From the NCBI GenBank assembly GCA_963712745.1, contig CAVQJC010000006.1, forward strand, positions 320,001 through 384,000: a stretch of DNA of 64,000 nucleotides, read 5' to 3'. The stretch is from an uncultured Chloroflexia bacterium (GTDB lineage Bacteria > Chloroflexota > Limnocylindria > Limnocylindrales > CSP1-4). The notes beneath the pieces are model-generated. The model did not search any database and was not told the DNA's origin. It saw nothing but the letters and a program-made list of their open reading frames with translations. Shown in pieces: positions 41,661 through 63,346 of the stretch (positions are counted from its first letter, which is position 1; each line of letters opens with the position of its first letter). The position numbers and the translations under genes were made by a program.

Positions 41661-41672
41661 ACTAGGCCGCCC

Positions 41673-44489: not shown

Positions 44490-45308
44490 TCAGCCGAGGA
44501 TCGGCTGACCGCGCTCGAGTGCCTCGGCCCGGTTCACCCACAAGCGCAGGCGCAGGGACCAGAAATCACGCACCGCTCGCAGCACGACGCGCGGGTCCGC
44601 TCCCGAGGCGCGGCCGGCGGTTCGGGGGTAGTGCGGGACGCCCTCCTCCGCGATGCGCCCGCCCCGCTGGCCGATCTTGATGAGCAGTTCGGCCGAGAGG
44701 AAGGCACCTCCGGACTCCACGCGCACGCCCTCGAGCGCATCTCGCCGGAATAGCTTGCAGGCACAGTCGGGGTCCCGCACCCGCAGCCTGAAGAACGTGG
44801 CCAGGGCCGCCCGATAGGCGCGCGCGTAGGCCAGGCGGACGGGCGGATCGGCCCGCTTGATACGGAAGCCGGCTACGACATCGGCGACCCTCCCGTCGGC
44901 TGCGGCCACGTCCAGCCGGGCGGTCAGCCGGGCCAGGTCCGCGACCTTGAACTGGCGATCGCCGTCGGTGAAACAGATGAGTGGATAGCGTGCGGCGGCC
45001 AGCCCAGAGCGGACGGCCGAGCCGTAGCCGAGGTTGAGCGGGTGGTGGACCGCGCGAACGATATCGGGGTGTTCCGCGGCCAGCCTGTCCGCGATGGCGC
45101 CGGTGCCGTCGGTACTGCCATCGTCGACGGCGATGATCTCGAAGCGCTCGGCGAGGTGGGGCAGCTCGGCCAGGGCTTCGTCGACCAGGTCTTCGATGTT
45201 CTCGGCCTCGTCGTGCGCGGGGAAGAAGTAGCTCAGCTCCGCGACGCGCGCCCGATCCGCGACGCGGGCGCGCCGGTCGTCGCTGTGTGGGGCGTTCGGT
45301 TCGGGCAC
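44490..45308 (-). CDS. GT2 glycosyltransferase (DPM/polyprenol-phosphate sugar synthase-like)
   Basis: FFPAHDE, VDDGSTDGT, NLGYG, FTDGDRQF, DPDCACKLF. Confidence 0.88.
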   Translation of the reverse strand: MPEPNAPHSDDRRARVADRARVAELSYFFPAHDEAENIEDLVDEALAELPHLAERFEIIAVDDGSTDGTGAIADRLAAEHPDIVRAVHHPLNLGYGSAVRSGLAAARYPLICFTDGDRQFKVADLARLTARLDVAAADGRVADVVAGFRIKRADPPVRLAYARAYRAALATFFRLRVRDPDCACKLFRRDALEGVRVESGGAFLSAELLIKIGQRGGRIAEEGVPHYPRTAGRASGADPRVVLRAVRDFWSLRLRLWVNRAEALERGQPILG

Positions 45309-45336
45309 AGCTCCAATCCTAAGGGTCACAGCCTCA

Positions 45337-46869
45337 TCAGTCCCCGTCGCTCCTGTCACCGTCCGTCGCCGGCCCCACCACCCGATAGAGCTCGCCGGGA
45401 ACCCCCGGTACAAGCTCCAGCTCGTAGAGTCGCTCCAGCGCCTCCCGGTCCTCCTTGATGCGGACGATGTACACCGGGCGCTCGCCGAGGAAGTGGTCGA
45501 TGGCGCCACGGACGTCACCGTAGCCATCGTCGAGGATGTCCCGGTCATCGAGGATGACGAGGTCCTCGCGACGCCCTTCTACCCAGCGTCCGTACCACAA
45601 CGGCGTGGAGAAGGACCACCACGAGATGACCGCAGCCTCCGGCTCCAGAGCCTCGAAGGCGGCTTCCAGGTAGTCACGGCCCCGGGTCTCCCCCGACGCG
45701 TCCATGGCCTCGTAGCGGTCAAGCGCCGGCAGCAGCACGGCCGCCATCAGGGCCAGCGACAGGCCGCCAGCCGCCAGGCCGGGCCATGGCCGTCGTGCAT
45801 CAGGGATGACCGTGCGCAACGAGTCCCAGATGACTTCGCCCGAGAAGCCGACCCAGAGCGCTGCGACCAGCAGTGGCACCAGGTAGTAGCGCTCGATGAC
45901 CGCGTTGCTGTAGCCCGCGGCGAAGAGCCAGGTAGCGCCGAACCAGAGCAGGCCCAGGAGCGTCAGGCGCGGATGCCGGCGGAGGCCCAGGATGGCTCCC
46001 GAGACGGCCAGGATCGACAGGACGCCAAGGTTGCGCACGAGCTCGTCCCAGGCGCCCGAGACGAGTTCCGCGAGCGGTGGCAGTCCGCCGAAGGAGCCGC
46101 GGAACTGTTGACCCAGGACGACGTACCAGAAGCGCTCCCACGTTTCCGGGTCGGCATAGTCGAGGCCGGGGTCCATGGCCGACCGCAATGGCAGGTAGAG
46201 ATAGACGAGGGCCGTCGTGAGCGCCAGCGCGGCGACACACGCCAGCACCAGGCGCCACTGCCGCCAGAGGATGCGCGGCGCCACCAGCAGCACGAAGACG
46301 GCGATGCCTGGCGCCAGCAGCAGGGTCAGGGCGTGGTTGCCCAGGGCCAGGCCGAAAGCGATCGCACATGCCACCAGCCAGCGTCCGGCGCCTTTGCCGC
46401 CCGCCGCGACCCGCGCCTGCCAGCCACCAAGCAGCACCAGCATGAGCGCGGCCATGAAGACGTGGAGCGCGTGCGGGTCGGCGCGCAGGCCCCACTTCCA
46501 GGCCACCGGGGTGACCGCGAACGCGAGCCCTGCGGCCAGACCCAACTGCCAGCGGCGCGTGGCCATGACCACCCGCACCGCCAACAGGGCAGCGGCCCCG
46601 GCCATGAGGCAGGCCGAAAGCAGGTCGGCCCGATAGGCCTCGTTGCCGAAGGGCGCGAAGACGACCGAGCCGAGCCAGGCCAGCAGCGTATAGGTCGGGT
46701 AGCCGGTGGGGTGGGCGATGCCCAGCACCGGGCCGACCGCCTGGAACTCGGCGGTATCCCACAGGCCCACGTCGGGCAGGAGCGTGCGGAGGTAGAGGCC
46801 CAGGGCCAGCAGGAATACCGGGATGGCCCCCAGCGCGTACTCACGACGGGCCGGGCGGGTCAGGTTCAC
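45337..46869 (-). CDS. DUF2723 / TMEM260-like GT-C glycosyltransferase (probable O-mannosyltransferase)
   Basis: DTAEFQ, LGIAHPTGYPTY, GNH, YLYLPLR; many TM helices; GTGA overlap with the upstream gene. Confidence 0.82.
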   Translation of the reverse strand: MNLTRPARREYALGAIPVFLLALGLYLRTLLPDVGLWDTAEFQAVGPVLGIAHPTGYPTYTLLAWLGSVVFAPFGNEAYRADLLSACLMAGAAALLAVRVVMATRRWQLGLAAGLAFAVTPVAWKWGLRADPHALHVFMAALMLVLLGGWQARVAAGGKGAGRWLVACAIAFGLALGNHALTLLLAPGIAVFVLLVAPRILWRQWRLVLACVAALALTTALVYLYLPLRSAMDPGLDYADPETWERFWYVVLGQQFRGSFGGLPPLAELVSGAWDELVRNLGVLSILAVSGAILGLRRHPRLTLLGLLWFGATWLFAAGYSNAVIERYYLVPLLVAALWVGFSGEVIWDSLRTVIPDARRPWPGLAAGGLSLALMAAVLLPALDRYEAMDASGETRGRDYLEAAFEALEPEAAVISWWSFSTPLWYGRWVEGRREDLVILDDRDILDDGYGDVRGAIDHFLGERPVYIVRIKEDREALERLYELELVPGVPGELYRVVGPATDGDRSDGD

Positions 46870-48257
46870 CACCCCAGCGTCACGCCCCAGTAGACGCCCC
46901 AGGCGTTGACCGCGACTGAGGCCCCCACCAGCGCGAGCGCGAGCCAGCCTGTGCCTAGGCGGGCGATGCCCAGGGTCGCCAGGATCACCGCGAACGGCGC
47001 GAAGTCGTTGCTGAAGCGGTAGCCGAACTGCACCCAGCCCTGGCTGAAGTGCATGAGGTCGGCAAGGGCGATGGCGATGACGGCCAGTGCAGCGCCGGCT
47101 ACCAGGCGGCGGCGCCAGCAGCGCAGCAGCACCGGGATCATCAGCAAGTAGGCCGGGCTCACCAGCAGGATGCTCATACCCATGGGGCTGGGCCGCAGCA
47201 GAGGGCACTCACGGTCGGTGAGCGAGTCGAGCCCGAGGTTCCGCGTGGCACAGGCTGGGTCGTCGAGCAACGGCATCTCGGGCAGCGAGCCCAGCATGAT
47301 GCCGAGGCTCTGGGGAATGTAGCGCGGGTCTTCGGCCGCCCACTCAGGATGGACCAATCCCGGCTGAGGCCGGTACTCGACCTCGTAGAGATAGTCGTAG
47401 GCCGGGTGGAAGACCTCGCCGGTAGTGACGAGGTTGTAGCCGGTGAGCAGCAGAACCGGGATGAGGGCGCCGGCGCCGGCGGCCAGTGTGCGCCGTGGCC
47501 ATGAGCCTCCCCCACCGACGAGGGCGAAGAAGGGCGCGCCGAAGATGGTGGTCAGCCGCGCTGTGGCTGCCGCCCCGAGGGCCAGTCCAGCCGCGAACTG
47601 GCGGCCCAGGGTCCGTCGTCCGGCACCGGCCCGCTGGGGGAGCACGCTCGCCTCGGCGCGCGTGGCCACGGCGATGGCGATGAAGAGGAAGGTCGAGGCC
47701 ACGACGTGGGCCAGGAACCAGGTCGTGCCCAGCATGGCCGCGTACCAGGCCACCGTGCCGAAGCCGTAGAAGACGGTGCCTGCCAGGGCCGCCGAGCGAC
47801 GTGGCGTCACGCCCAGCAGCATGACCCAGCAGAGCACGACGTTGACCGCCCCCAGGGCCGCTGCCACGCCAGAGCCGTTGGTGCCCAGGCCCCACACCGC
47901 CACGAACGGCAGCAGCACGATCGCTGGCAGCGGCGGGAAGGGGATCTGAGCGCGGTCCGGCCCCACCGGCAGCACGTCCTGGAAGTAGCCATTCTGGTAC
48001 GGCCCCTCCGTCACCGGATAGGCGATCTCGGCGCGGCCATGGAGGAAGGCGTCCGCCTGCCATACGAAATGGTCGTAGAGATCGCCGCGAGCCGGGTTGG
48101 AGCCGACATAGACGATGAGCGCCACGACGAAGAGGGCGATCGAGACCCAGGCGGGGTCGATACGGGCCAGCCGAGCCTCGAGCCAGGCGCCGGGCCCCGA
48201 CTCGGGTCGGGGCGCGTCTGGGGAGGACAGGGGGCCCGTTGATATACTCGCGCTCAC
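46866..48257 (-). CDS. multi-pass membrane protein, probable GT-C fold glycosyltransferase
   Basis: YDHFVWQADAFLHGR, PFPPLP, GWVQFGYRFSNDF; many TM helices; GT cluster context. Confidence 0.6.
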   Translation of the reverse strand: MSASISTGPLSSPDAPRPESGPGAWLEARLARIDPAWVSIALFVVALIVYVGSNPARGDLYDHFVWQADAFLHGRAEIAYPVTEGPYQNGYFQDVLPVGPDRAQIPFPPLPAIVLLPFVAVWGLGTNGSGVAAALGAVNVVLCWVMLLGVTPRRSAALAGTVFYGFGTVAWYAAMLGTTWFLAHVVASTFLFIAIAVATRAEASVLPQRAGAGRRTLGRQFAAGLALGAAATARLTTIFGAPFFALVGGGGSWPRRTLAAGAGALIPVLLLTGYNLVTTGEVFHPAYDYLYEVEYRPQPGLVHPEWAAEDPRYIPQSLGIMLGSLPEMPLLDDPACATRNLGLDSLTDRECPLLRPSPMGMSILLVSPAYLLMIPVLLRCWRRRLVAGAALAVIAIALADLMHFSQGWVQFGYRFSNDFAPFAVILATLGIARLGTGWLALALVGASVAVNAWGVYWGVTLGW

Positions 48258-48290
48258 CTCATCGCTTTCCCAGGAGGCAGGACGTCGTCG

Positions 48291-51200
48291 GTGACCTCGA
48301 CCCTGGTGCAAGGGGTCGGCCGTAGCCACGGAGAGCCGGTCCGCCCCCTTTCCGTGCTCGCCCTGAGCCCCGCCATCATCGTCCTGCTGCTCGGCGGTCT
48401 GGCACTGCGGCTAACTATCGCATACGTGCTCTTCCCGGCCTCGGGCTTCGAGTCGGACCTGGCCTCCTATGCGTCGTGGGCCGGCTCGATGGCCGAGTTC
48501 GGCCCCGGCGGCTTCTACCAGAACGCCGGTTTCTCCGACTACCCGCCGGCCTATCTCTACGTGCTCTGGGGCCTGGGCCTGCTGGCCGGGTCTGCCGGCG
48601 ATGCCGCCGAGCTGGTCAAGCTGCCGCCCATCCTGCTCGACATCGCGGTCGGGTACTTCATCTTCAGGTTGGTGCGCGGTTGGACCTGGCCCGGGCCTCG
48701 CAGCGAGGCGCTGGCGCTGGTCGCCGCCGCCCTCTACCTGTTCAACCCGGTGTCCTTCTACGACTCGGCCCTCTGGGGCCAGACCGACGCGGCCGGGGCC
48801 CTGGTGCTGTTGCTGGGCCTGGCCGCGCTCATCCGCGGCAACAGCGAGGGTGCCGCGGCCATGGCCGCGACCGCAGCCCTGGTCAAGCCGCAGTTCGGGG
48901 TGGTGCTTATCCCCCTCGTGGCCGCCGTCCTCGTCAAGCGGCACCTGCTGCAGGCCGGCTCGGGGCCACGCAAGCGGCCATGGGTGCCCGGGACGCTCGG
49001 CCGCTGGCTGGCGCGCGAACAGGGCCCACTGCGACTGCTGACGGCCGTGGGGGTCGCCTGGCTGGCCTACCTCGTGATCGCGCTGCCCTTCGGCCTGGGC
49101 CCAGACGAATACCTCGAGCGCATGTTCGGCACCGCCGGTGGCTACGGCTATCTCAGCGTCAACGCCTTCAACCTGTGGGCGCTCGTCGGTGTCGATGGGC
49201 AGCCCTCGCTGGCCGATGCGCTGCGCTGGAACGAGGACACGCTGGAGCTTCTGGGCCCGCTGCCGGGCCTCGCCATCGGTGCGACCCTGCTGGTCGCGGG
49301 CTTCCTCTGGGGCGTCGTTCGCGGCGCGGTGCGCGACGATCGCTGGACGCTCATCGTGGCCATCACGTTCCTGGCCATCGCCTTCTTCATCCTGCCCACG
49401 CGGGTCCACGAGCGCTACATCTTCCCGGCCGTCGCGCTGATGCCGCTGCTGGCAGTGGTGCAGCGTCGCTGGGCGCTGGCGCTGCTGCTCTTGAGCGTGG
49501 GCGCCTTCATCAACCTGCACGCCATCCTGACGCTGCCGCTCTACGGCAGTAGCAACGTCGAGACGCTGCCGCTGGGGGAGTGGTTCAGGAGCCAGCCGCT
49601 GGTGGTGCTCTCGGCGCTGCTGCAGACGAGCGTGGGCCTGTGGGCGGCCTGGCAGCTGCGTCCCTCGCTACGCACCAGCCCAGACCGATTCGATTACGCC
49701 TCGGCCCCCGCGGGGGAGGGGGTGCCAGCGCTCGCGCCACCCTCGAGCTACCCGGCGCTGCCGCCCTCGCCGGAGCTCTGGGTCCGCGGGCCTGGTGTCG
49801 TGGACCAGGTCGTGTCCCGTCTCTCGTGGGGCTCGCTGCGGCGCGACCGTAGCGCGACCCTGGCGTGGGAGCGGGGCGGGCGCCTCGACCGGCGCGACCT
49901 GCTCATCGTGGCCGTGCTGGCCGTGCTCGTGCTCGGCATCCGCGGCTTCCGTCTGGACCAGCCGGTGCGCATGTACTTCGACGAGGTCTACCACGCTCGC
50001 ACGGCCACCGAGTTCCTGCAGCAGTGGCAGTACGGCGAGCCTCACGACATCTACGAGTTCACCCACCCGCACCTGGCCAAGTACGCCATGGCCTGGGGTA
50101 TCCGCCTCGCCGGCGGTAATCACATCACGGGCTCCGCCGAGCTGGGGGTGCCAGTAGCCGACACCGCTCTCGAGCGACGCTGGGCGCGATCGGCCGAGGA
50201 CGAGCGGCGCCGGGGCGACCGGCTGTGGGTCGGGACCGGCAGCGCCCTGCGCGCCTACGACCTGGAGACCGACAGGTTGGTGGCCGAGGTCCCCTTGGCC
50301 GCGGCCGCCGTGGCGGTGGACGACGCTGGTCATCGTCTCTTCGTGGCCGATTCCGTGGGCCGCCTCTACCGGCTGGACACGACCGTGCTCGACGGCGCGC
50401 CGGGAGGCCAGGCCCTCCTCGAGACCATACCGCAGCCCCTGTCCCCGGGCCCCGGTGCCCCGGTCGAGCGACTGCTCGCTACCGATACATCCCTTGTGGC
50501 GGCCACCCGTGGCGCGCTCAGATCCTTCGACCCCGAGACTGGCGAGCTCGTCTCCGAACGACTGATGGTGGGGGTCACCGACCTGCTCGAGCTGCCGTGG
50601 GCCGAGCGCCTGGTCGTCGATACCCGCGCGTTGCCCGACCGCGAGGTCGCGGCCGATCTCCTGGCCGAAGCCCTCGCCACGGACCGTGAGCCGCTGGCCG
50701 AACGCCTGGCGGCCGAGGGTTCGGTGGTCATCGCTGCCTGGCTCGACGAGAGCGCGGCCGATGCTGTGCTGGCGCTGATCGAGGCCGGTGACCTGCCCGG
50801 GGCAGAGCTGGCGTCGGCGCCGCTGTTGGCCGTGGCCGATCACTCCGGCGTGAGTGTGCTCGACGCCTGGACGCTCGACCCGGTCGATGACATCGCCAGC
50901 GCGTCCGCCGTCAGCGCGCTGATGCTGGCCGAGCCGGCGAGCGACGAACCCACGCTCTACGCCGCCGCCGGGCCCGAGCTCCTGACGGTGCCGCTGCTGG
51001 AGGATGGACCCGGCATCCCTGAGACGATGTGGATGCCTGGCCAGACGCGCGGCCTCGCCTGGAACGAGTCGGCTGGCCTGGCTCATGTGCTGGGCGACGC
51101 GCCCGAGGGTGGGCCCACGGTCTACGTGGTCGAGCCCCGGGGCCGATCGGTCTTCATCGACGTGCCGCTGCCCTACGAACCGCTGCGGCTGCTGGCCGAC

Positions 51201-53345
51201 ACGCAGGCGGACCGACCCGACGCCGACCGCACGCAGCTGCTGGCGGTCGCGGCGGACGGCTCGGTGACAACGATCGGCATCGGCGGCAACGCCTTCGGCT
51301 GGCGCCTGCCGGGCGTGCTGCTGGGCGTGCTGGGAGCAGCCCTCCTCTATCTCCTCGCCCGCGTGCTCTTCGCACGGCGAAGTATCGCCCTCATCGTGGC
51401 CGTCCTTGTCGTTGCCGAGGGCATGCTCTTCGCCAACTCGCGGATCGCCATGAACGACGTCTACGTGACCACGTTCATCCTACTCGCGGCACTCGTCTTC
51501 GCGCCCCTCTACCTCGCTCCGAGGCGGGCCCTCATCGCCCTCGCCATCGTCATCGGGGCGGGCCTGGCGCTGGGGCTTGCCCTGGCCTCGAAATGGGTCG
51601 CGCTCTACGCCATCGGCGGCCTCGGCCTGCTGGTGCTCTTGCGCTCGGCGCTCGGCCGCTCCATGGCCCTGCTGGCTCTCATGGGCATGACGGCCGTCCT
51701 CGGCGCCATGGCCGTTCGCCCAGCCGATATGCCCGAACCCTCGCGCAACTGGAGCTTCGTGCTATTGATGCTGCTGCTCACAGGGTTACTGGCGGCGGCG
51801 ATGGTGCGTCGACCGCTGCCCTTCACCAGGGTGGAGGTCCTGCTGGCGGTGACGGCGCCGATCCTGGCCGGACTGGCGCTGGTCCTGCTGGGGCAGCCGC
51901 TCTACGGGGGGCTGACCGTGGGGGCAGGGGCGCTCGTGGCTCTCATCGCACTCGTGGTGACCTGGGCGGGGCGTGGCCCCTTCTCCCCCGCCGCCCGACT
52001 GCCGGCTCGGGACACCAGCGTCTGGCTGCGCCCGGGGCCGGTCCAGTTCGTGCCCTGGCTGCTCACGCTGGGCGCCCTCCTGGTCCTGCCCATCGGGACG
52101 TATGTCATCAGCTACGCACCGTGGGTCGAGCTGGGCAACGCCTGGGGCCTGCCGCTGCTAGGAGACCTGCCCTTCCTGCCCGAGTCGGTCGAGGACGGCC
52201 GTGATCTGGCCGACCTGACCGCATCGATGTACCAGTACCACGACAACCTCCGCGCCGAGCACGCCGCTTCGTCCCCGTGGTGGGCCTGGCCACTCGACCT
52301 CAAGCCGGTGTGGTTCTTCCAGGAGCGCTACGCCGACGGCACGACCGGGCTCATCTACGACGCCGGCAACCTCGTCGTCTTCTGGCTGGGCATCGCGGGC
52401 CTGGCCTTCAGTGCGGTCATGGCCTGGCGCCGGCGTAGCCTGGCCCTGACGCTGGTGGTGGTCATGTGGGCGGCACTCTGGCTGCCCTGGGCGCGTATCG
52501 ACCGGGCCGCGTTCCAGTACCACGTCTACGCCAGCCTGCCCTTCATGCTGCTGGCCCTCTCGTACTTCCTTGCCGAGCTGTGGCACGGACCGGGCGCACG
52601 CACCTGGTTCCTGGCCCGGGTTGCCGGCGCCCTGGCCATCATCGGCGTGCCGTTGCTGTGGCTGCTGCGCACGCCGCTGTGCATCCTCTCCGGTACGGCC
52701 GTGGCACGTCCGGAGGGCGTGGCGTGTGCCGCGGAGGTCACCCGCACCGCGCAATTGAGCGAGGGCGGCGTGGCGGCGATCTTCGTCCTGGGGGTGGGCG
52801 CTGCCGTGGCCGGCTATCTTGCCTGGCGAGCCTCGCGGGCCCAGGCTCTCCGGCCGCGCGAGGACGGCCGCGGCGGGCCCTGGCTGGCGGCCATCGTGAC
52901 CGTCGCCCTGCTCACGCTCGGCGGCGTCTTCGCGGCGCTGCTCCTGCTCGACACCTCGTCGACCACGGGCATCACCATGACCTCCGACGTGCTGGCGCTG
53001 ATGGGCCTGGTGGTGCTGGGGATCCCGGCCTGGCTGACGCTGCGCGCGCGCGATCCGCGACGCTTCGTGCTGGGTGTCCTGGGCGCAGCCGTGCTCTGGC
53101 TGCTGGTGTGGTATCCGAACATCAGCGGCCTGCCGCTACCGTCGGAGATCGCACATCTCTACCAGGGCCTGCTGCCGACCTGGAACTGGGACTTCCAGTT
53201 CGCGGTCAACACCGACCCTGCTGCCGAGGACGGCATCGCTGACGCGGCCACCCTCGTCATCGGCGCCATCAGCGTCGTCTTCGTCGTGGCCGTGGCTGTG
53301 GCCGCCCGTGCCTGGGGCCGGCCCTCGCCGCCGCCCTCGGGGTAG
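48291..53345 (+). CDS. 1684-aa double GT-C protein: ALG6/8-like domain fused to PMT/GT39 domain with a large inserted soluble domain
   Basis: N-half SDYPP, WGQTD, KPQ, PTRVHERY; C-half YFDEVYH, HPHLAK, NAFGWR, SRIAMND, ASKW, HAASSPWWAWP, FQYH. Confidence 0.85.
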   Translation: MTSTLVQGVGRSHGEPVRPLSVLALSPAIIVLLLGGLALRLTIAYVLFPASGFESDLASYASWAGSMAEFGPGGFYQNAGFSDYPPAYLYVLWGLGLLAGSAGDAAELVKLPPILLDIAVGYFIFRLVRGWTWPGPRSEALALVAAALYLFNPVSFYDSALWGQTDAAGALVLLLGLAALIRGNSEGAAAMAATAALVKPQFGVVLIPLVAAVLVKRHLLQAGSGPRKRPWVPGTLGRWLAREQGPLRLLTAVGVAWLAYLVIALPFGLGPDEYLERMFGTAGGYGYLSVNAFNLWALVGVDGQPSLADALRWNEDTLELLGPLPGLAIGATLLVAGFLWGVVRGAVRDDRWTLIVAITFLAIAFFILPTRVHERYIFPAVALMPLLAVVQRRWALALLLLSVGAFINLHAILTLPLYGSSNVETLPLGEWFRSQPLVVLSALLQTSVGLWAAWQLRPSLRTSPDRFDYASAPAGEGVPALAPPSSYPALPPSPELWVRGPGVVDQVVSRLSWGSLRRDRSATLAWERGGRLDRRDLLIVAVLAVLVLGIRGFRLDQPVRMYFDEVYHARTATEFLQQWQYGEPHDIYEFTHPHLAKYAMAWGIRLAGGNHITGSAELGVPVADTALERRWARSAEDERRRGDRLWVGTGSALRAYDLETDRLVAEVPLAAAAVAVDDAGHRLFVADSVGRLYRLDTTVLDGAPGGQALLETIPQPLSPGPGAPVERLLATDTSLVAATRGALRSFDPETGELVSERLMVGVTDLLELPWAERLVVDTRALPDREVAADLLAEALATDREPLAERLAAEGSVVIAAWLDESAADAVLALIEAGDLPGAELASAPLLAVADHSGVSVLDAWTLDPVDDIASASAVSALMLAEPASDEPTLYAAAGPELLTVPLLEDGPGIPETMWMPGQTRGLAWNESAGLAHVLGDAPEGGPTVYVVEPRGRSVFIDVPLPYEPLRLLADTQADRPDADRTQLLAVAADGSVTTIGIGGNAFGWRLPGVLLGVLGAALLYLLARVLFARRSIALIVAVLVVAEGMLFANSRIAMNDVYVTTFILLAALVFAPLYLAPRRALIALAIVIGAGLALGLALASKWVALYAIGGLGLLVLLRSALGRSMALLALMGMTAVLGAMAVRPADMPEPSRNWSFVLLMLLLTGLLAAAMVRRPLPFTRVEVLLAVTAPILAGLALVLLGQPLYGGLTVGAGALVALIALVVTWAGRGPFSPAARLPARDTSVWLRPGPVQFVPWLLTLGALLVLPIGTYVISYAPWVELGNAWGLPLLGDLPFLPESVEDGRDLADLTASMYQYHDNLRAEHAASSPWWAWPLDLKPVWFFQERYADGTTGLIYDAGNLVVFWLGIAGLAFSAVMAWRRRSLALTLVVVMWAALWLPWARIDRAAFQYHVYASLPFMLLALSYFLAELWHGPGARTWFLARVAGALAIIGVPLLWLLRTPLCILSGTAVARPEGVACAAEVTRTAQLSEGGVAAIFVLGVGAAVAGYLAWRASRAQALRPREDGRGGPWLAAIVTVALLTLGGVFAALLLLDTSSTTGITMTSDVLALMGLVVLGIPAWLTLRARDPRRFVLGVLGAAVLWLLVWYPNISGLPLPSEIAHLYQGLLPTWNWDFQFAVNTDPAAEDGIADAATLVIGAISVVFVVAVAVAARAWGRPSPPPSG

Positions 53346-56540: not shown

Positions 56541-57537
56541 GGGCCCCGACCCTGGCCGCTCGAAGGGCCAGGTCCTCGGCCTCGCCATCGTGGGCCGGCC
56601 ACATCGGCTTGAAGGTGTACCACTGTTCGGGGGCTGCGGCGATCATGTGTTCGAGGGCGTCGGCCACCGCCTGGGTGGCGCGAGCGATCTCGGCCTCCGA
56701 CGTTCCGGCCACCTCGATGGGTTCGTACATGATGGGGACGTAGGAGCCATCGGGTTGGCGTCGGGCCAGGACCGGCACGACCACGGCGTTGGTGCGAGCG
56801 GCCAGCGTGGCCGGGCCGGCTGGGAGCGTGGTCCAGTCGCCGAACAGGCGGACCGGCACGTCGTCGGGCCGGTAGCCCCAGTCCACGACCATGCCCAGGA
56901 TGGCCGGCTTGCGCATGACCCGGAAGATATCGCGCAGCCGGCGCCAGGGGATGATGGTCACGCCCCACCGCGCCCGCGAGCGGTTGAGCAGCTCGAAGAG
57001 CTCCGGATAGGCCGAGTCGTCGGCCAGGCCGTAGGTGGGGATGCCTTGCTGGGCATAGGCCCCGGCGAAGACCTCGATGCTGCCGATGTGGCCGGAGACG
57101 GCGACGATGCCGCGACCCTCTGCTTCGCAGCGGTGCCACAGGTCCATGAACCGCTGGTGTAGTTCGCCCTCCTTGGACACGAGCCGGGCGGGCTCGTCGG
57201 CGGGCAGGTTCGGCAGCCGCATCAGCTCGATGGTGAAGCGCGCATAGGTGCTGTAGATGCCGCGTGCCAGGCCTGCCACGTCCCGGTGGTCGTGTGGCAG
57301 GCCCAGCACGTGGGCGGCATTGCTCTTGATGATGTGTCGCTTCGACGGCCACAGGTAGTAGCCGGCGCGGAAGCCGATTCCTGCGAGCGGCTCGCTGATG
57401 CGCAGCGGCACCCGCACCAGCAGGGCGCTGACGGCGCGGAAGACCAGGACCACGAAACGCTCCCAGGCCCGCGACACGGCTCCGCAGAGCAGCCCCCGGT
57501 CCGAGCGGCGGTGTGGTGCGTAGTCGACGCCGGACAC
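56533..57537 (-). CDS. PatA/LpxL-family lysophospholipid acyltransferase (copy 1)
   Basis: HIGSIE (Hx4E), GMVVDW, VRLFG, PAGPATLA, APEQW; AGGAGG RBS before GTG 57537. Confidence 0.85.
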   Translation of the reverse strand: MSGVDYAPHRRSDRGLLCGAVSRAWERFVVLVFRAVSALLVRVPLRISEPLAGIGFRAGYYLWPSKRHIIKSNAAHVLGLPHDHRDVAGLARGIYSTYARFTIELMRLPNLPADEPARLVSKEGELHQRFMDLWHRCEAEGRGIVAVSGHIGSIEVFAGAYAQQGIPTYGLADDSAYPELFELLNRSRARWGVTIIPWRRLRDIFRVMRKPAILGMVVDWGYRPDDVPVRLFGDWTTLPAGPATLAARTNAVVVPVLARRQPDGSYVPIMYEPIEVAGTSEAEIARATQAVADALEHMIAAAPEQWYTFKPMWPAHDGEAEDLALRAARVGAHD

Positions 57538-57547
57538 GTCCCTCCTG

Positions 57548-58720
57548 TCAGGCGATCGTGACCGCCTCCTGCTCATTCGAGGCTGCCGCCAGGACCGCCT
57601 CAGCCTCCTCGACCGCGTCCGACTCGGCGCCGTTCAGGGTCGCTTCGTCCTCGCCCCGGATGAAGGCCTCGAGACGCTCGCGGGCGACGTCGTCGTGGAT
57701 CTGCTGGGGCGGGCTCTTCATGAAGTATGCCGAGGCAGCCACGAGCGTGCCCGCGAGGCCGCGGTCGAGGCCGATCTTGGCGCAGCGGATGGCGTCGGTG
57801 ATGACGCCGGCACTGTTGGGGCTGTCCCAGACCTCGAGCTTGAGCTCGGCCAGCAGCGGCACGTCGCCGTAGGTCGTGCCCTCGATGCGGATGTGGCAGA
57901 ACTTGCGGTCCTCGAGCCAGGGCACGTGGTCCGAGGGGCCGACGTGGACGGCACCCTCCTCGAGCTCGTAGTCCAGCATCGAGGTGACGGCGTTGGTCTT
58001 GCTGATCTTCTTGGACTCCAGGCGATCGCGCTCGAGCATGTTCTGAAAGTCGGTGTTGCCGCCGAAGTTCAACTGGTAGGTCCTGTCGACCTTCACTCCG
58101 CGGTCGTCGAAGAGGCGAGTCAGCACGCGGTGGCTGATGGTGGCGCCGACCTGGCTCTTGATGTCGTCGCCGATGACGGGCAGCCCGGCAGCGGCGAACC
58201 TGGCCTGCCACTCGGGCTCCCGGCCGATGAAGACGGGGATGGCGTTGACGAAGGCGCAGCCGGCCTCGATGGCTCGCTCGGCGTACCAGCGAGTAGCGTC
58301 CTCACTGCCCACCGGCAGGTAGGAGACGACCACCTCGACCTGGGCCGCCTTGAGTGCCGCGACCACGTCGACCGGCGCCTCCGGCGACTCGGGAACGACG
58401 GCTGCCACGTAGCGGCCGATGCCGTCCATGGTCGGGCCGCGCTGGACGGTGACACCCACCCGGGGTACATCGCAGAAGCGGATGGTGTTGTTGGGCTTGG
58501 CATAGATGGCCTCGCCCAGGTCCAGCCCGACCTTGCTGGCGTTAACGTCGAAGGCCGCCACGAACTCGATGTCACGGACGTGATAGCCGCCAAGGTTGAC
58601 GTGCATCAGGCCGGGGACGAAGGTGTCCTCAGGGGCGTCCTGGTAGTAGTAGCGGCCCTGGACGAGGCTGCTGGCGCAATTCCCGACGCCGATGATGCCG
58701 ACGCGAACCTTGTTGCTCAT
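57548..58720 (-). CDS. ino1: myo-inositol-1-phosphate synthase
   Basis: [62 protein letters not shown]. Confidence 0.96.
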
Positions 58721-58747
58721 TGGTGGTGTCTCCTGCCTTGTCTCGTG

Positions 58748-59413
58748 TCAGTCGTTCTGGGGGTTGGGGGGTTGGGCGGTGACGAAGCGGACGCGCTGGA
58801 TGACCGTGACGGTCGCCAGCACGGCGATCAGACCGAGGCCTATCGCGAGGATGAGGCTGCCGGTGTCGAACAGGTCGGGAGTGACTCCGAAGATGCCTGC
58901 GCCCACGACGGCGATGCCGAGGATGACCGTGCGGACCTCGCGCGGAGCGAAGCCGATGGCGGCCATGCCGGTGCCGCTCGAGAAGCCGAGCGATTCGCTC
59001 TTGGCGCGGGTGTAGCTGACCATGAAGGCCGAGACCAGCGCTGCGGCCGCCAGCCAGGCTCCCAGATCGAAACCGGCTCGCGTGGCACCGATGACGATGC
59101 CCAGGTACACGATGCCTTCGCCCCAGCGGTCGAAGGTGCTGTCCATGAAGGCACCGAGCTTGCTCACCTGCCCGGTAGCGCGCGCGACCGCCCCGTCGAA
59201 CATGTCGAAGCCCGCACCGGCCGTGGCCACGATGCCGGCGAGCAACCACCATTCGAGAGCGGCCAGCACACCGCCGAGCGAGGCGATGCCGAAGCCGATG
59301 AGGGTGAGCATGTTGGGCGTGAGCCCTGCTCGAGACATGGCCAGAGCGATGGGTTCGACCCTGGCCCGGATGCCGGAGCGCTGCTCCGGCGAGATGAACG
59401 ATCCCTTGCCCAT
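58748..59413 (-). CDS. pgsA: CDP-alcohol phosphatidyltransferase (PI-phosphate synthase-like)
   Basis: LTPNMLT, DMFDGAVAR...GAFMDSTFDR, MVSYTRAKSESLG; adjacent to ino1. Confidence 0.85.
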   Translation of the reverse strand: MGKGSFISPEQRSGIRARVEPIALAMSRAGLTPNMLTLIGFGIASLGGVLAALEWWLLAGIVATAGAGFDMFDGAVARATGQVSKLGAFMDSTFDRWGEGIVYLGIVIGATRAGFDLGAWLAAAALVSAFMVSYTRAKSESLGFSSGTGMAAIGFAPREVRTVILGIAVVGAGIFGVTPDLFDTGSLILAIGLGLIAVLATVTVIQRVRFVTAQPPNPQND

Positions 59414-59415
59414 GA

Positions 59416-59748
59416 CTACCTCTCCAATCCCAAGAGTGCGATCTCCTGCTCGTGGAACCGCAGCAGGGCCTCGCGACCCAGGCTGCAGATGGTTTCGCGA
59501 CCCTGCCGCCGGGTCTGCACGAGACCGGCCGCACGCAGGCGGCGCAGGTGCCACGACACGAGCGGCTGGCTCAGGTCGACGTGGCGCATGAGGTCGCTGA
59601 CAGTGCCATCCCCCTGGGCCAGCCGCTGGAGGATGCGCAGCCGGGTGGGGTCGGCGAGGGCCTTGTGCACCAGCGCCACACCTTTGAGGTCCTGCGGCGG
59701 ACCGGTGATGGTGGCGATGGTGGAACGGATGCGTGCCGGACTTGGCAA
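59416..59748 (-). CDS. ArsR/SmtB family transcriptional regulator
   Basis: KALADPTRLRIL, LSQPLVSWHLRRLRAAGLV, RRQGRE; GAGGAGG before TTG 59748. Confidence 0.88.
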   Translation of the reverse strand: MPSPARIRSTIATITGPPQDLKGVALVHKALADPTRLRILQRLAQGDGTVSDLMRHVDLSQPLVSWHLRRLRAAGLVQTRRQGRETICSLGREALLRFHEQEIALLGLER

Positions 59749-59779
59749 GCGGTCCTCCTCCGAACTCGACTTGTCACAA

Positions 59780-59807
59780 CAACAAGTCTTTATATAAGCG
59801 GTTGTTG
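59780..59807. promoter_or_regulatory. putative ArsR operator in the divergent promoter region
   Basis: AT-rich inverted repeat CAACAA-gtct-TTATATAA-gcgg-TTGTTG. Confidence 0.6.
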
Positions 59808-59879
59808 ATGCTAGACGGCCGGGGACGCCCATGTCAAGCCCCCGTGGCGCGGCCGTGGTGAATGGCCCATCATTCGGCC

Positions 59880-60809
59880 ATGCCGTCGATCGCCCGGCCC
59901 CTGCCCCTGACCATCGTGACGCTCGGCATATCGTCACTCGCTCTGCTCATCAGCCTCGTAGTCGGTGCGGACCCCCTCAGCCTCGTCGTCGGCGCGGCGA
60001 CCGTGGCCGTTGCCTTTGCCCTGGTGGTCGTGATCTGGTTCGTGCCCGCCCAGCGGGCTGCTCGTCGCCGCCGACGTCGAGACCTCCGCGAGGCCAGGCG
60101 CGCGCGCCGTCGTGAGCGCCAGGCGGCTGTCCGTCGCGCTGCCAAGCAGGAGCGCGTCACCCGGCGCCTGGTGGGGCGCAGTGAGCGCCACCTCCTCGTG
60201 CAGCTGGAGTCTCGCGACTGGCTGTCCCGCGAGCTCGGTCTGCCCAGACCGCTGCCACCCACGCGCGCCTATGCCGCCAGCCCGGACCTTCTCGCCGAGC
60301 TGGTCGGGGCCATCGACCGCTTCGCGCCCGACACTGTCGTGGAACTCGGCGCCGGGCTATCCACCGTGGTCCTGGCCCGCCGGCTGCAGCAATCCGGCCG
60401 CGGCCATCTGGTCACGCTCGAGCACTTGCCTGAGTACGCGGCGCGGTCCAGGGAGGAGCTCGAGGCGTACGGGGTGAGCGGCAGTGTGAGCGTCCTCGAC
60501 GCACCGCTGGTGGATACACCCGTAGGTCCCGAGACCTGGCCCTGGTACGAGCTCGGGCCAGGTGTCCCCGAGCGCATCGACATGCTCGTCGTCGACGGCC
60601 CGCCGGGCAGGATACGGCCGCAGGCCCGCTATCCCGCCATGCCCGTGCTGCGGGACCGGCTCAGCCCCGGCGCGCGCGTGTTCGTGGACGACGGGGACCG
60701 GCCTGATGAGCGTTTGATCGTCGACCGCTGGCTGGCCGAGATCGATGGTCTCGAGGCCGAGCGGCTGTCCATCGCCCAGGGTGCCTGGATGCTGACCATG
60801 CCGCGATGA
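59880..60809 (+). CDS. membrane-anchored class I SAM methyltransferase (Methyltransf_24-like)
   Basis: Two N-terminal TM helices, Arg-rich linker, VVELGAGLST, LEH, IDMLVVDGPP, VDD. Confidence 0.82.
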   Translation: MPSIARPLPLTIVTLGISSLALLISLVVGADPLSLVVGAATVAVAFALVVVIWFVPAQRAARRRRRRDLREARRARRRERQAAVRRAAKQERVTRRLVGRSERHLLVQLESRDWLSRELGLPRPLPPTRAYAASPDLLAELVGAIDRFAPDTVVELGAGLSTVVLARRLQQSGRGHLVTLEHLPEYAARSREELEAYGVSGSVSVLDAPLVDTPVGPETWPWYELGPGVPERIDMLVVDGPPGRIRPQARYPAMPVLRDRLSPGARVFVDDGDRPDERLIVDRWLAEIDGLEAERLSIAQGAWMLTMPR

Positions 60810-60867
60810 CCGCCGCCCGCCATGGTCTTGTCGGAGTGCCCGGGCCCTGACTGCCACCGCTGAGCCC

Positions 60868-62478
60868 ATGGGCCGGACCTCGCGCGCGGTGATGCTGGCC
60901 GCGCTGTGCCTGGGTGTGCTGCTCGTGGGCATCGAGTTGTTCATCACCGCGGTCGCGCTGCCGGACATCTTCTTCGACCTTTCGGGCTGGGACGAGCTGC
61001 GGCGGGCTTCGTGGATCATCACCGCCTACCTGGTGGCCTACATCGCCGCCATGCCCCTGGCCGGACGTGCTGCGGACCGCTTTGGATTACCGCGCCTGAT
61101 GATGCTGAGCCTGCTGCTGTTCGCGGCCGGCTCGTTCATCTGCGGCGCCGCCCAAGACCTGGAGATGCTGGTCTTCGGACGCGTGGTGCAGGGCGCCGGC
61201 GCAGGCGCCATCCTGCCCGTGGCCACGGCCGGCGCCAGCCACCTCTACAGCGGCCATCTCCGCTCCCGTGCGCTCGGCTTCATCGGCGCCGCCACCTTCC
61301 TGGGCATGGCCATCGGGCCCCTGCTGGGCGCGCTCATCCTCGAGCACCTGCAGCTGCGCGACGCGCTCGCCTCGATCGACATCTGGGGCGGCAGCGCGGT
61401 CGACTACCTCGTGCCGGCCTGGCGCTGGGTCTTCTACATCACCGTACCGCTGGCGCTGCTGGCGGCCCTCTACGTCTGGGCCGCTTCCCCGGACTGGGAC
61501 GTGGCCCCGGGCAGCTCGCGCATGGACGCGGTCGGCGCGGTCCTCTCCAGCATCGCCCTCACCAGTGCCCTGCTGGCCATCACGCTCATCGGCGATGAGC
61601 CAGGCGACCTGCCGGTCATCCCGGTGGCCACGGTCGTGGCCATCGTCGCCGGCGTGCTCGCGGTCGTGCGCATGCTGCGTGTACCTGAGCCCTTCCTCGA
61701 CCTGCGCCTGTTCACCAACCGCGTCTTCAGCGGGGCGGTGCTGGTAAGCCTGCTCACCGGCTACGCCCTGGCCACGGCCATCGTGGGCATGGCTGCGTTC
61801 ATCGACCGGGTCCGTTTCGCGGGCCCCGACGAACAGGGCCTGGTGCTGGGGCCGATGGCTCTGTTCATGGCCATCGGCGCCTTCGCCTCGGGCTTCATGA
61901 TGCGGCGCTTCAACGCCACCGCCGTGACCCTGGTCGGCCTGGCCGCGAGCGTGGTCGGCCTGGTCTGGCTCTCGACCACGCGCATCGATACCGAGCTGTA
62001 CGTGCCGGTGGGGGCCATGTCCGTCTTCGGCATCGGCTTCGGGCTCACCGTCACTCCGCGCTCGATGGCGGCCGTGGAGGCGGCCGGCCGCGCCGCCTTC
62101 GGAGCTGCCAGTGCCGCGGTCACGGTCGCGCGTATGGCCGGCATGGCCGTCGGCATGGCCGTGCTCACGGCCTTCGGCACGACCCGTATCGACCAGGTGA
62201 CCGTGGCCCTCGAGGACCAGACCTACCGCGACTCCATCCTGCCGCCGGAGCTGGTAGGCCAGCCGCTGAGCGACCCCCTCGTGCTCGACGCCATCGAGCT
62301 CTGGGCCTCATCAGAGGCGGCGGAGGTGCTGGGCTCGCTGTTCATCGTGGCCGCCATCATCCTGGTCATCGCCGCGGTTCCGGCCTGGCTCATGCGCGAG
62401 GGGCGGGGTGACCAGGCGGGCGACGTCGCGACGGTCCAGGCGGCGGCAGACGACGAGGAGATCGTCGCTGGCTTCTGA
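60868..62478 (+). CDS. 14-TM-type MFS transporter, Rv1410c/P55-like
   Basis: YIAAMPLAGRAADRFG, GRVVQGAG, WRWVFYI, ASAAVTVARMAGM. Confidence 0.85.
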   Translation: MGRTSRAVMLAALCLGVLLVGIELFITAVALPDIFFDLSGWDELRRASWIITAYLVAYIAAMPLAGRAADRFGLPRLMMLSLLLFAAGSFICGAAQDLEMLVFGRVVQGAGAGAILPVATAGASHLYSGHLRSRALGFIGAATFLGMAIGPLLGALILEHLQLRDALASIDIWGGSAVDYLVPAWRWVFYITVPLALLAALYVWAASPDWDVAPGSSRMDAVGAVLSSIALTSALLAITLIGDEPGDLPVIPVATVVAIVAGVLAVVRMLRVPEPFLDLRLFTNRVFSGAVLVSLLTGYALATAIVGMAAFIDRVRFAGPDEQGLVLGPMALFMAIGAFASGFMMRRFNATAVTLVGLAASVVGLVWLSTTRIDTELYVPVGAMSVFGIGFGLTVTPRSMAAVEAAGRAAFGAASAAVTVARMAGMAVGMAVLTAFGTTRIDQVTVALEDQTYRDSILPPELVGQPLSDPLVLDAIELWASSEAAEVLGSLFIVAAIILVIAAVPAWLMREGRGDQAGDVATVQAAADDEEIVAGF

Positions 62479-62488
62479 CGACCTGGCT

Positions 62489-63346
62489 GTGCCCCTCGCC
62501 GGCGGCGTGGCGGTGTCTTCCGCCGCCGAGGCCATGACGCGTGCGCGCCCGCTGCTCCGCGGACGGCTGTTGCTGGCCTGCGACTTCGACGGCACCATTT
62601 CCCGGCTCGGGCTCGACCCCTGGCGAGCGGCCGTCATCCCGAGCGCCCAGCGGGCACTGCGCCAGCTGGCCGGCTCACCGCGCACTCACGTCGCTCTCAT
62701 CTCCGGTCGCTCCGTGCCCGACCTGGCCGGACGCGTGCGGGTCGGTGGCGCGAGCTATCACGGCGATCATGGGGCCGAGCGAGCGCGCACCGTCCGTGGC
62801 TTCCGCCCGGCGCACATCCGGGTCGAGCGGGAGCCGGCCGACCCCGCGGTCACGGCCATGGCCGAGCGCCTGAAGACGGGCGTGCCACCGATGGTTGCCG
62901 AACCCTGGCTGGTGCTCGAAGACAAAGGCCCCGCGCTGACCTTCCACTTCCGCGGCGCCCCCGACACCGACGCGGCTCGGCGCCGGGTGCGCGCGGCCGT
63001 GGACGCTATCGACACCGACGGTCTGCTCGATCAGCCCGGCGGGCGCCGCGCCTGGGAGCTGAGACCTCCCGGCGCCACCACCAAGGGCATGACCCTGGAG
63101 CGGCTCATGGGGGAGTATCGTCCCGACACGGTGCTCATGCTGGGCGACGATCGCAACGACGCGCTGGCCTTCGACGCGCTGCGGGCGGCTCGCGACGACG
63201 GCCGGGTGCAAGGTCTGGCCATCGCCGTCGTCAGCCCGGCCGCCGATGCCACCGAGATCGCACCCCGCGCCGACCTCGTCTTTCCCGGATCGAGCGTGGC
63301 CGCGCGCTTCCTGGGGTTGCTGGCGCGCGCACGCGCCGACGCTTGA
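62489..63346 (+). CDS. otsB: trehalose-6-phosphate phosphatase-like HAD IIB enzyme (start uncertain)
   Basis: CDFDGTIS, ISGR, GDHGAE, EDKG, HFR, ELRP...KG, GDDRND. Confidence 0.82.
   Translation: MPLAGGVAVSSAAEAMTRARPLLRGRLLLACDFDGTISRLGLDPWRAAVIPSAQRALRQLAGSPRTHVALISGRSVPDLAGRVRVGGASYHGDHGAERARTVRGFRPAHIRVEREPADPAVTAMAERLKTGVPPMVAEPWLVLEDKGPALTFHFRGAPDTDAARRRVRAAVDAIDTDGLLDQPGGRRAWELRPPGATTKGMTLERLMGEYRPDTVLMLGDDRNDALAFDALRAARDDGRVQGLAIAVVSPAADATEIAPRADLVFPGSSVAARFLGLLARARADA

Follow-up and report, generated by a model that had tools for sequence, protein, structure and literature searches.

Phosphatidylinositol mannosides (PIMs) and the lipoglycans derived from them are regarded as a hallmark of Actinobacteria and as components that define their envelope. 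The locus described here raises the question of whether a bacterium of the Chloroflexota is equipped to make such lipids, and how far its genes match the mycobacterial pathway. The locus occupies positions 44490-63346 of our window, a 64,000-nucleotide stretch from an uncultured Chloroflexia bacterium (GenBank assembly GCA_963712745.1, contig CAVQJC010000006.1, positions 320,001 to 384,000). An earlier note, made from the sequence alone, had taken it for a near-complete mycobacterial-style system, and Pfam and NCBIfam searches recovered every gene that the note had listed, each where it had been placed. Based on homology and gene order, the seven-gene operon at 53159-59679 on the minus strand probably specifies a self-contained pathway that starts from glucose-6-phosphate and ends in an acylated phosphatidylinositol (PI) glycoside, most likely an acyl-phosphatidylinositol mannoside. 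Its order is ArsR-PIPS-Ino1-AcylA-AcylB-PHP-PimA, where PIPS is the synthase of phosphatidylinositol-phosphate (PIP):

59416-59679, minus strand: ArsR/SmtB regulator, the first gene of the operon (HTH_5, 9e-17; NF033788, 83.6 bits)
58748-59413, minus strand: PIPS, a PgsA1-like CDP-alcohol phosphatidyltransferase (PF01066, 5.8e-14)
57548-58720, minus strand: Ino1, myo-inositol-1-phosphate synthase (PF01658, 2.3e-34, 118 bits; TIGR03450, 563 bits)
56533-57537, minus strand: PatA-like acyltransferase A, AcylA (Lip_A_acyltrans, 2.2e-28)
55512-56540, minus strand: PatA-like acyltransferase B, AcylB, the more divergent paralogue (Lip_A_acyltrans, 1.1e-16)
54655-55515, minus strand: phosphoesterase with PHP and PHP_C domains (PHP_C, 2.3e-11; PHP, 4e-07; CehA/McbA domain, 68.9 bits)
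53159-54658, minus strand: PimA-like GT4 glycosyltransferase (Glycos_transf_1, 3.8e-35; Glyco_transf_4, 2.5e-23)

Coordinates follow the likelier start codons rather than the longest open reading frames (ORFs). Because the ORF list of the window, at 64-73% G+C, is full of shadow frames and of frames over-extended at the 5' end, gene calls were set by family matches and by inspection of the junctions; the ArsR frame, for instance, is open back to 59937, and its likely start is a GTG at 59679 or 59670. The operon is as tightly overlapped as the earlier note had stated, with junctions that either overlap by 4-8 nucleotides or leave gaps of 2-27. The ArsR stop lies 2 nucleotides before the PIPS ATG, PIPS and Ino1 are separated by 27 nucleotides with a Shine-Dalgarno-like AGGAG, and Ino1 and AcylA by about 10; AcylA overlaps AcylB by 8 nucleotides, and the AcylB/PHP and PHP/PimA junctions overlap by 4 each (GTGA). 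Four estuary metatranscriptome libraries yielded contigs of 151-258 nucleotides that match parts of PimA, AcylB, AcylA, PIPS and ArsR without any difference, together with a contig on Ino1 that carries a single one; none in the four libraries fell on the PHP gene, and two contigs span junctions (AcylA/AcylB and PIPS/Ino1). They give a weak hint that the operon is expressed, DNA carry-over being possible. In the sequencing-run survey no run contained half of the sampled words, and the uncovered parts in the four RNA libraries carry no meaning.

The assembly comprises 4.2 Mb in 20 contigs of 67-69% G+C each. A search with the GT4 protein against one genome per species returned 426 relatives, and the best 80 of these 426 loci (57-92% identity in GT4) come nearly all from metagenome-assembled genomes (MAGs) titled Chloroflexota, uncultured Chloroflexia, Candidatus Limnocylindrales/Limnocylindria or CSP1-4. 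Because NCBI places Limnocylindrales in class Limnocylindria of phylum Chloroflexota, the titles of the nearest relatives identify the host as non-actinobacterial, as the note had supposed. Chloroflexota of this kind are abundant in soils, sediments and lakes.

Among solved structures, the best match of the PIPS protein is mycobacterial PgsA1 (PDB 6h53, 4.6e-16), followed by the PIP synthases of Renibacterium and M. kansasii, and the earlier identification as PgsA is thereby upheld at the level of a PIPS-like protein. In NCBIfam the protein scores highest with archaetidylinositol-phosphate synthase (125.5 bits, cut-off 180) and the PI-phosphate synthase family PIPSynth (114.3 bits, cut-off 170). 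The translation contains DX2DGX2AR...GX3DX3D, which the available part of Heaver et al. (PMC9246714) gives as the motif used to recognise PIP synthases. A role in di-myo-inositol-phosphate synthesis was rejected: the operon has no cytidylyltransferase domain, and IPCT/DIPPS scored 48 bits against 114-125 for the PIP and archaetidylinositol-phosphate synthases. Ino1 matches TIGR03450 over positions 1-355 of 355 (563 bits, cut-off 638), and copies 60-76% identical were found in operons of other classes. For both acyltransferases the best NCBIfam family is the PIM acyltransferase NF005919 (101.4 bits for AcylA and 77.7 for AcylB, cut-off 209), and PatA chains are the only PDB entries that match them (5.7e-14 and 8.2e-06), so that the PatA assignment also stands, as PatA-like. 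AcylB shows an HX4D motif, and the catalytic His and block-3 acidic residue of PatA (roles as given in the available part of PMC4792965) align with AcylA.

The GT4 protein has the two-domain GT-B architecture (Glyco_transf_4 and Glycos_transf_1) and aligns with M. smegmatis PimA (PDB 4n9w/2gej) over residues 1-363 at about 40% identity (3.7e-55). It had been proposed to group with PimA and does so among solved chains, with 190.8 bits for PimA and 95.9 for the next family, Tll1590; MshA-type chains follow with 80 and 65 bits and PimB' with 63.9. The protein keeps the G-G, R/K (nucleotide-sugar-binding) and EX7E positions of PimA, which we take to be functional residues, and all of them are invariant in 24 Chloroflexota homologues. 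Conservation is confined to 53570-54658, the last ~136 codons forming a non-conserved tail, and the protein ends at 369-425 residues in relatives. This tail is rich in Pro, Ala and Thr and overlaps the 3' end of a convergent gene of 1684 codons by 187 nucleotides (53159-53345). Where tblastn matches to the GT4 look 'full-length', they read across stop codons; what is conserved there is probably the gene on the other strand.

Conservation of the cluster was followed by tblastn of 15 window proteins against the best 80 loci, 42 of which retained both 10-kb flanks and are called full-length here. Counts over all 80 are lowered because many loci are cut by contig ends. The PimA-like gene was found in 80/80 loci and 42/42 full-length ones, PHP in 77/80 and 42/42, AcylB in 73/80 and 42/42, AcylA in 72/80 and 42/42, PIPS in 56/80 and 42/42, ArsR in 54/80 and 41/42, and Ino1 in 58/80 and 38/42. 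For the genes on either side the corresponding counts were 71/80 and 39/42 for the 1684-residue GT-C protein, 56/80 and 39/42 for a 463-residue membrane protein (unk487), 50/80 and 34/42 for a GT2, 44/80 and 32/42 for a TMEM260-like protein, 44/80 and 37/42 for a major facilitator superfamily (MFS) transporter, 30/80 and 28/42 for a trehalose-phosphatase (OtsB) at the edge of the flank, and 11/80 and 8/42 for a methyltransferase. The window's order of 14 genes, all but the methyltransferase, is identical in 15 of the 42 full-length loci, and three more hold all 15 genes. Recurrence of this order in related genomes puts the arrangement far beyond chance and bears out the expectation that the cluster would be conserved in relatives.

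Across the phylum, 401 sampled Chloroflexota genomes were scanned with residues 1-380 of the PimA-like protein at E ≤ 1e-45. The gene is present in 290/401 genomes (284/395 without six genomes flagged unpublished), in 165/218 genera and in 231/322 high-quality genomes; with few exceptions it occurs as one full-length copy, 42-48% identical outside Limnocylindria. With this query and threshold, no PimA-like gene was found in families f10 (0/24) and f14 (0/25; f, L, G and C numbers are our handles for families, loci, genomes and contigs). We hand-picked 40 neighbourhoods from 36 families among the listed matches, a non-random set, and counted as neighbours the genes on the same strand within 6.5 kb. 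PIPS accompanies the PimA-like gene in 36/40, Ino1 in 24/40, ArsR in 16/40, PHP in 17/40 (16 families), and at least one PatA-like acyltransferase in 26/40 (two in 21/40); PIPS and Ino1 are both missing from three of the 40. Outside Limnocylindria the genes usually run ArsR-Ino1-Acyl-Acyl-(PHP)-PimA-PIPS, within the class PIPS has shifted to second place, and small genomes of 1.4-2 Mb (f20, f12, f36 and f49) keep only Ino1-PimA-PIPS. The operon is probably an ancestral, widely retained Chloroflexota trait. The earlier note thus needs correction in scope: the core is widespread in the phylum, and only the juxtaposition with the GT2/GT-C genes is specific to Limnocylindria.

The PimA-like and PHP genes are retained in all four genomes of family f2, which measure 1.1-1.4 Mb and belong to the same order as the host. 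One f2 locus (L180; G133:C2:89800-109799) holds the complete ArsR-PIPS-Ino1-Acyl-Acyl-PHP-PimA series with no GT-C block within 10 kb. Because f2 genomes of this size retain the operon, its core is suggested to be important even in streamlined cells.

Linkage to PIPS and to PatA-like genes in these neighbourhoods supports a PI-type acceptor for the GT4, as far as gene order can indicate. In the proposed route, Ino1 would make inositol-phosphate, PIPS would join it to CDP-diacylglycerol to give PIP, the PHP phosphoesterase would remove the inositol phosphate before or after glycosylation, and the two PatA-like acyltransferases would attach one or two more acyl chains. The simplest product to expect from a single PimA-type GT4 and a pair of PatA-type acyltransferases would be a mono- or di-acylated PI-monohexoside. 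A gene of the GDP-mannose pyrophosphorylase type is present in the genome. According to the available part of PMC12453558, a cultured Ktedonobacteria species has PI among its major polar lipids and also contains unidentified glycolipids, which fits a PI-glycolipid.

The GT4 and PHP proteins might instead have soluble inositol-phosphate as their substrate, in the manner of MshA and the MshA2 phosphatase in mycothiol synthesis, and yield a glycosyl-inositol solute or a thiol precursor. MshA-type enzymes are indeed among the GT4 matches (PDB 7qsg, 1.4e-21; TIGR03449, 76 bits), the best Ino1 family carries mycothiol in its name, and the mycothiol pathway presumably needs a phosphatase as well. However, the MshA-type chains fall well short of PimA in bit score, and the GT4 gene adjoins a gene for a membrane PIPS in 36, and genes for PatA-like lipid acyltransferases in 26, of the 40 neighbourhoods. 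We therefore consider a soluble product very unlikely.

Several observations count against an acylated PI mannoside as the product. The PatA-like, PIPS and Ino1 proteins alike miss their NCBIfam equivalog cut-offs, and no PimA-specific model was among the 25 of 32 NCBIfam matches listed for the GT4. A basic stretch of M. smegmatis PimA, presumably the amphipathic helix that mediates membrane and PI binding, aligns to a stretch of the GT4 without basic residues, an objection of little weight. Because of the missed cut-offs and the unmatched basic stretch, we file the proteins as PimA-like, PatA-like and PIPS-like and not as proven orthologues. The operon holds no PimB'-like second mannosyltransferase, and for this reason the product may carry a single sugar. 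By analogy, mannose is the default choice; sequence fixes neither the sugar nor the acceptor. The MAG is an estimated 84.6% complete with 5% contamination; that concern is offset by the position of the locus on a 405-kb contig and by its synteny in many relatives.

The earlier note had assigned no role to the PHP gene, in our view the most interesting part of the locus. The pathway needs a phosphatase because PIP synthase yields PI-phosphate, and no PgpA-type PIP phosphatase gene was found in the genome at its estimated completeness. The mycobacterial PIP phosphatase is called 'as-yet unidentified' and 'long-sought' in the available part of a preprint that proposes EphE for it (bioRxiv 10.64898/2026.07.15.738315). 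We propose, from context and chemistry, that the PHP protein is the PIP-to-PI phosphatase, or a mannosyl-PIP phosphatase if the GT4 acts first. What backs this role is gene context, and PHP is not homologous to the PgpA-like BT_1525. The PHP gene adjoins PimA in 42/42 full-length related loci, and its stop shares nucleotides with the PimA start in several loci.

The candidate is a soluble protein of 241-294 residues. Across 26 operon-linked homologues, which are 27-81% identical to the window protein, D19, H23, D28, D52, H53, E80, H87, H121, D183 and H185 are invariant and H21 is kept at 90% or more; we take the invariant His, Asp and Glu residues to be the PHP metal ligands. A confident AlphaFold2 (AF2) model (predicted local distance difference test score, pLDDT, 89.3) gave as its best Foldseek matches, at E 4e-11 to 1e-08, TM0559, the PHP domain of RNase AM, PsfC, BVU_3505 and Cv1693. 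Cv1693 is a Chromobacterium enzyme solved with AMP and phosphate, and a 3',5'-bisphosphate phosphatase is among the matches. PDB sequence matches are RNase AM-type chains only, and homologues are publicly annotated as 'TrpH' or 'CehA/McbA'. A prediction of a PimA and PHP complex, run without controls, scored 0.01, which gives no answer either way.

These relatives give substance to a different account, in which the substrate of PHP is a nucleotide or nucleotide sugar (it might, for instance, hydrolyse GDP or GDP-mannose) or PHP is an unrelated housekeeping enzyme, and another enzyme dephosphorylates PIP. A nucleotide-acting PHP would correspond to the NUDIX domain of the mycobacterial pgsA/patA/pimA operon, whose last gene encodes a LemA-NUDIX protein according to the available part of the EphE preprint (bioRxiv 10.64898/2026.07.15.738315). 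The nearest relatives in sequence and fold are nucleotide and RNA phosphoesterases (RNase AM, 9etk/7ug9; the phosphatase 2yb1 of adenosine 3',5'-bisphosphate, pAp). Yet pAp and PIP are chemically analogous, each presenting a ring with a phosphomonoester next to a second phosphate ester, which would lessen the force of that resemblance. The gene is also translationally coupled between an acyltransferase and PimA, and PimA is its neighbour in all 42 full-length related loci and, phylum-wide, in 16 families. With a phosphatase required by the pathway and none of PgpA type found in the 84.6% complete genome, we regard the nucleotide-directed or housekeeping account as somewhat unlikely.

The distribution of PHP weighs against its assignment as PIP phosphatase and favours that alternative. 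The gene is absent from 23/40 operon neighbourhoods, and family f26 has the PimA-like gene in 6/7 genomes and a PHP-family match at 1e-10 in 0/7. Conversely, PHP-family matches at this threshold occur in 341/401 Chloroflexota genomes, families without PimA included (f10, 24/24; f14, 17/25). Paralogues of PHP stand beside more divergent GT4 genes, and the pairing of PHP with GT4 may be more general than the inositol operon. In a quick tree of 47 rows (26 operon-linked and 21 labelled unlinked) the two groups were not cleanly separated, with 6 changes and three very long branches; the label of L201 is wrong and those of L186, L196 and L197, which lie beside a GT4, are doubtful. The tree supports no conclusion on a subfamily. 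The GT4 genes adjoining the paralogues at L186 (G026:C15), L196 (G295:C1) and L197 (G207:C87) encode proteins 31-36% identical to the PimA-like protein, and two of these three loci belong to a family that is not among the PimA matches listed. In the host itself, a second, distant PHP paralogue lies ~11 kb upstream of the window start (C6:308185-308715, 33% identity over 183 residues). The OtsB-like HAD phosphatase at the far end of the locus was set aside as a PIP phosphatase, as it passes the trehalose-phosphatase cut-off and an OtsA gene is present.

Whether the proposed acyl-PI glycoside is extended further depends on how the genes on the PimA side of the operon are read:

44490-45329, minus strand: GT2 of the polyprenyl-phosphate-sugar synthase type (DPM1/ArnC/PpgS-like), with no predicted transmembrane (TM) helix (Glycos_transf_2, 9.1e-24)
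45337-46872, minus strand: TMEM260-like GT-C glycosyltransferase (PF11028, 1.4e-22)
46866-48257, minus strand: 463-residue membrane protein of an unnamed family (unk487), GT-C by predicted fold
48291-53345, plus strand: 1684-residue membrane protein with two GT-C modules (PMT, 5.3e-14, and PMT_4TMC, 1.1e-10; PIG-U, 2e-06)

The 1684-residue gene is convergent with PimA and divergent from a second packed operon made up of unk487, the TMEM260-like gene and the GT2; the likely GTG start of the TMEM260-like gene overlaps the stop of unk487 upstream. The GT2 is closest among NCBIfam families to PpgS, dolichyl-phosphate-hexose transferase and ArnC, all far below their cut-offs, and among PDB chains to ArnC (1e-08) and the synthase DPMS (5mlz, 1.5e-06). 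Its relatives fit the polyprenyl-phosphate glycosyltransferase group, in which mannose specificity is not readable from sequence. In the 1684-residue protein, PMT and PMT_4TMC match at residues ~1000-1460, and the N-terminal 600 residues carry a PIG-U match at residues 85-218 (27.6 bits, cut-off 24.5). A language-model atlas holds clusters with the same long two-module architecture, which we take as a lead only. The ~400 residues between the modules (601-1000; 50091-51290) match no family, with a weak hint of a PQQ_2/BamB-type beta-propeller (E 0.03).

No Pfam or NCBIfam model matches the 463-residue protein. It has 2731 homologues at E ≤ 0.001, and among the 120 listed no Pfam domain occurs and those with a name are called 'hypothetical'. 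Its AF2 model, built from a 29-sequence alignment (pLDDT 84.7; predicted template-modelling score, pTM, 0.87), matched AglB, STT3 and ArnT by Foldseek at E ≤ 0.001, and more weakly PimE, AftA, Pmt4, ALG12 and Emb, with template-modelling (TM) scores of 0.35-0.51. Pairwise hhalign comparison of the four GT-C modules gave nothing significant, the best pair being unk487 and the TMEM260-like protein (P 0.0014, probability 17.6). The count of four GT-C modules in three genes is therefore confirmed on unequal evidence, three by family match and that of the 463-residue protein by predicted fold only.

The PMT, TMEM260 and PIG-U families comprise enzymes of protein O-mannosylation and enzymes related to glycosylphosphatidylinositol (GPI). 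None of the GT-C proteins in the window matches GT87 (PF09594), the PimE/MptA type. The suggestion that GT-C enzymes extend PIMs here holds as to the presence of GT-C modules; because these are of PMT, TMEM260 and PIG-U types and not of the mycobacterial GT87 type, lipoglycan extension is unproven. Nine GT87 matches lie elsewhere in the genome, on contigs C20, C4, C1 and C2 and mostly in two clusters on C20 (C20:568145-569922, C20:602156-605846, C4:98548, C1:346591 and C2:11313). By family membership, these nine genes are candidates for mannoside-extension enzymes.

The GT2 and GT-C block (44490-53345) could accordingly belong to a protein O-mannosylation or cell-wall glycan system, so that the locus would contain two systems and not one assembly line. 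In addition to the PMT, PMT_4TMC and TMEM260-like matches, which are to protein O-mannosyltransferase families (Pmt being the only NCBIfam match), and the location of all nine GT87 genes elsewhere, the distribution of the block points this way. It accompanies the operon only within Limnocylindria (80 loci and L178) and in 0/37 neighbourhoods outside; within the class it is present in L178 (f3) and not within 10 kb in L179 (f4) or L180 (f2). On the other side, the block adjoins the operon in 39/42 full-length related loci, down to a PimA identity of 57%, the N-terminal module of the 1684-residue protein matches PIG-U, a GPI-related GT-C family, and the acceptor cannot be told from a GT-C fold alone. 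We put the chance of two separate systems close to even. That the block extends the inositol glycolipid in Limnocylindria, where the GT2 and the four GT-C modules may act on it at the outer face of the membrane, and that it serves a separate protein or wall glycosylation system turned fixed neighbour, are about equally likely.

Beyond the GT2 lies a gene with a bifunctional-nuclease domain (43841-44461; BFN_dom, 3.1e-40), which holds this place next to the GT2 in 30/42 full-length related loci. The stretch at 40869-43796 holds overlapping ORFs of 906 (minus strand) and 707 (plus strand) codons together with one of 522, none of them with a Pfam match.

The genes on the ArsR side of the operon are divergent from ArsR, and are followed by a cupin gene and then the nuo operon:

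59862-60809, plus strand: membrane-anchored methyltransferase with one predicted TM helix (Methyltransf_24, 1.8e-09)
60868-62478, plus strand: MFS efflux transporter of the DHA2 (EmrB) type (MFS_1, 3.3e-44; TIGR00711, 196.6 bits, cut-off 230)
62408-63346, plus strand: trehalose-6-phosphate phosphatase, OtsB (TIGR00685, 102.7 bits, cut-off 68)

The methyltransferase had been counted as part of the system, but is a weakly conserved neighbour (8/42 full-length loci), and its membership in the pathway is doubtful. The transporter, which had been called P55-like, is a generic efflux pump of the DHA2/EmrB type. OtsB was correctly named, its score lying above the trehalose-phosphatase cut-off, and a conserved position is the sole tie of both this gene and the MFS gene to the pathway; OtsB is probably outside it. 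The OtsA match (Glyco_transf_20) is on C11:242857-244239, within an open frame of 791 codons that is long enough for a fused form. The description of the locus as a near-complete system for synthesis, extension, modification and export therefore stands for the core synthesis and over-reaches for the methyltransferase, MFS and OtsB genes, with extension to a lipoglycan unproven as set out above.

The most far-reaching combination would be that Chloroflexota at large make acylated PIMs by the ancestral operon, that PHP is a third, non-homologous PIP phosphatase, and that Limnocylindria build a lipomannan-like or GPI-like lipoglycan with the GT-C set, the two-module fusion included. Taken as a whole, this is unlikely. 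The more limited claim has consequences of its own. The presence of a conserved operon of PimA, PatA, PIPS and Ino1 in about 70% of the Chloroflexota genomes sampled would bring another large terrabacterial phylum into PIM chemistry, with a bearing on how monoderm Chloroflexota build their envelopes. PHP offers a concrete, testable candidate for the PIP phosphatase step, to which a PgpA-like enzyme of Bacteroides was assigned only in 2022 (PMC9246714, available part). An abundant GT-C family without a Pfam model and a two-module GT-C fusion also gain a context from the locus.

In full-text literature, outside subscription journals and supplementary files, we found no paper linking PIMs or PimA to Chloroflexi or Chloroflexota and no description of the unified locus, in agreement with the earlier note; the supplementary survey of PMC9246714 may list Chloroflexota. 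Apparent matches proved false (MetaCyc, an actinobacterial species description and the author name 'Pimanda'). The main texts of two Limnocylindria papers and a Tepidiforma paper do not mention inositol lipids, and 'inositol' is absent from the first 300,000 characters of PMC7203096.

The closest known system is the pgsA1-patA-pimA operon of mycobacteria and corynebacteria together with Ino1, which draws on the same four families (PIP synthase, PimA-type GT4, PatA-type acyltransferase and MIPS, the myo-inositol-1-phosphate synthase). The mycobacterial operon likewise unites PIPS, acyltransferase and GT4 (bioRxiv 10.64898/2026.07.15.738315, available part). In contrast to it, the Chloroflexota operon includes Ino1 and ArsR, has two acyltransferase paralogues instead of one, and carries PHP before PimA and no LemA-NUDIX gene; one LemA gene is on another contig. 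Compared with the solved actinobacterial proteins, the PimA-like protein is only about 40% identical and the others are less so.

Bacteroides thetaiotaomicron BT_1522-1526 (Heaver et al. 2022, PMC9246714, available part for all that follows on this system) likewise clusters MIPS, PIP synthase and a PIP phosphatase and passes through a PIP intermediate, as proposed here. The Bacteroides phosphatase BT_1525 is PgpA-like, whereas the clustered hydrolase here is of the PHP family, no PgpA member having been found in this genome. The Bacteroides products are PI and inositol sphingolipids, and PimA or PatA homologues are not described in that part of the paper. EphE, the candidate for the same PIP-to-PI step in mycobacteria, was proposed from its association with PimA; as far as the available part of the preprint goes (bioRxiv 10.64898/2026.07.15.738315), its fold is that of an epoxide-hydrolase-like alpha/beta-hydrolase, and its gene lies outside the operon. 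PHP, by comparison, would be metal-dependent, and its gene lies directly upstream of PimA.

Finally, the GT-C block shares its fold and families with the PMT/TMEM260 O-mannosyltransferases and the GPI-related PIG-U/PIG-M enzymes, and its donor would likely be a polyprenyl-phosphate-sugar from the adjacent GT2. It differs from those enzymes in that two GT-C modules are fused with a 400-residue middle domain, that one module belongs to a family without a Pfam model, and that the block as a whole is linked to an inositol-lipid operon.

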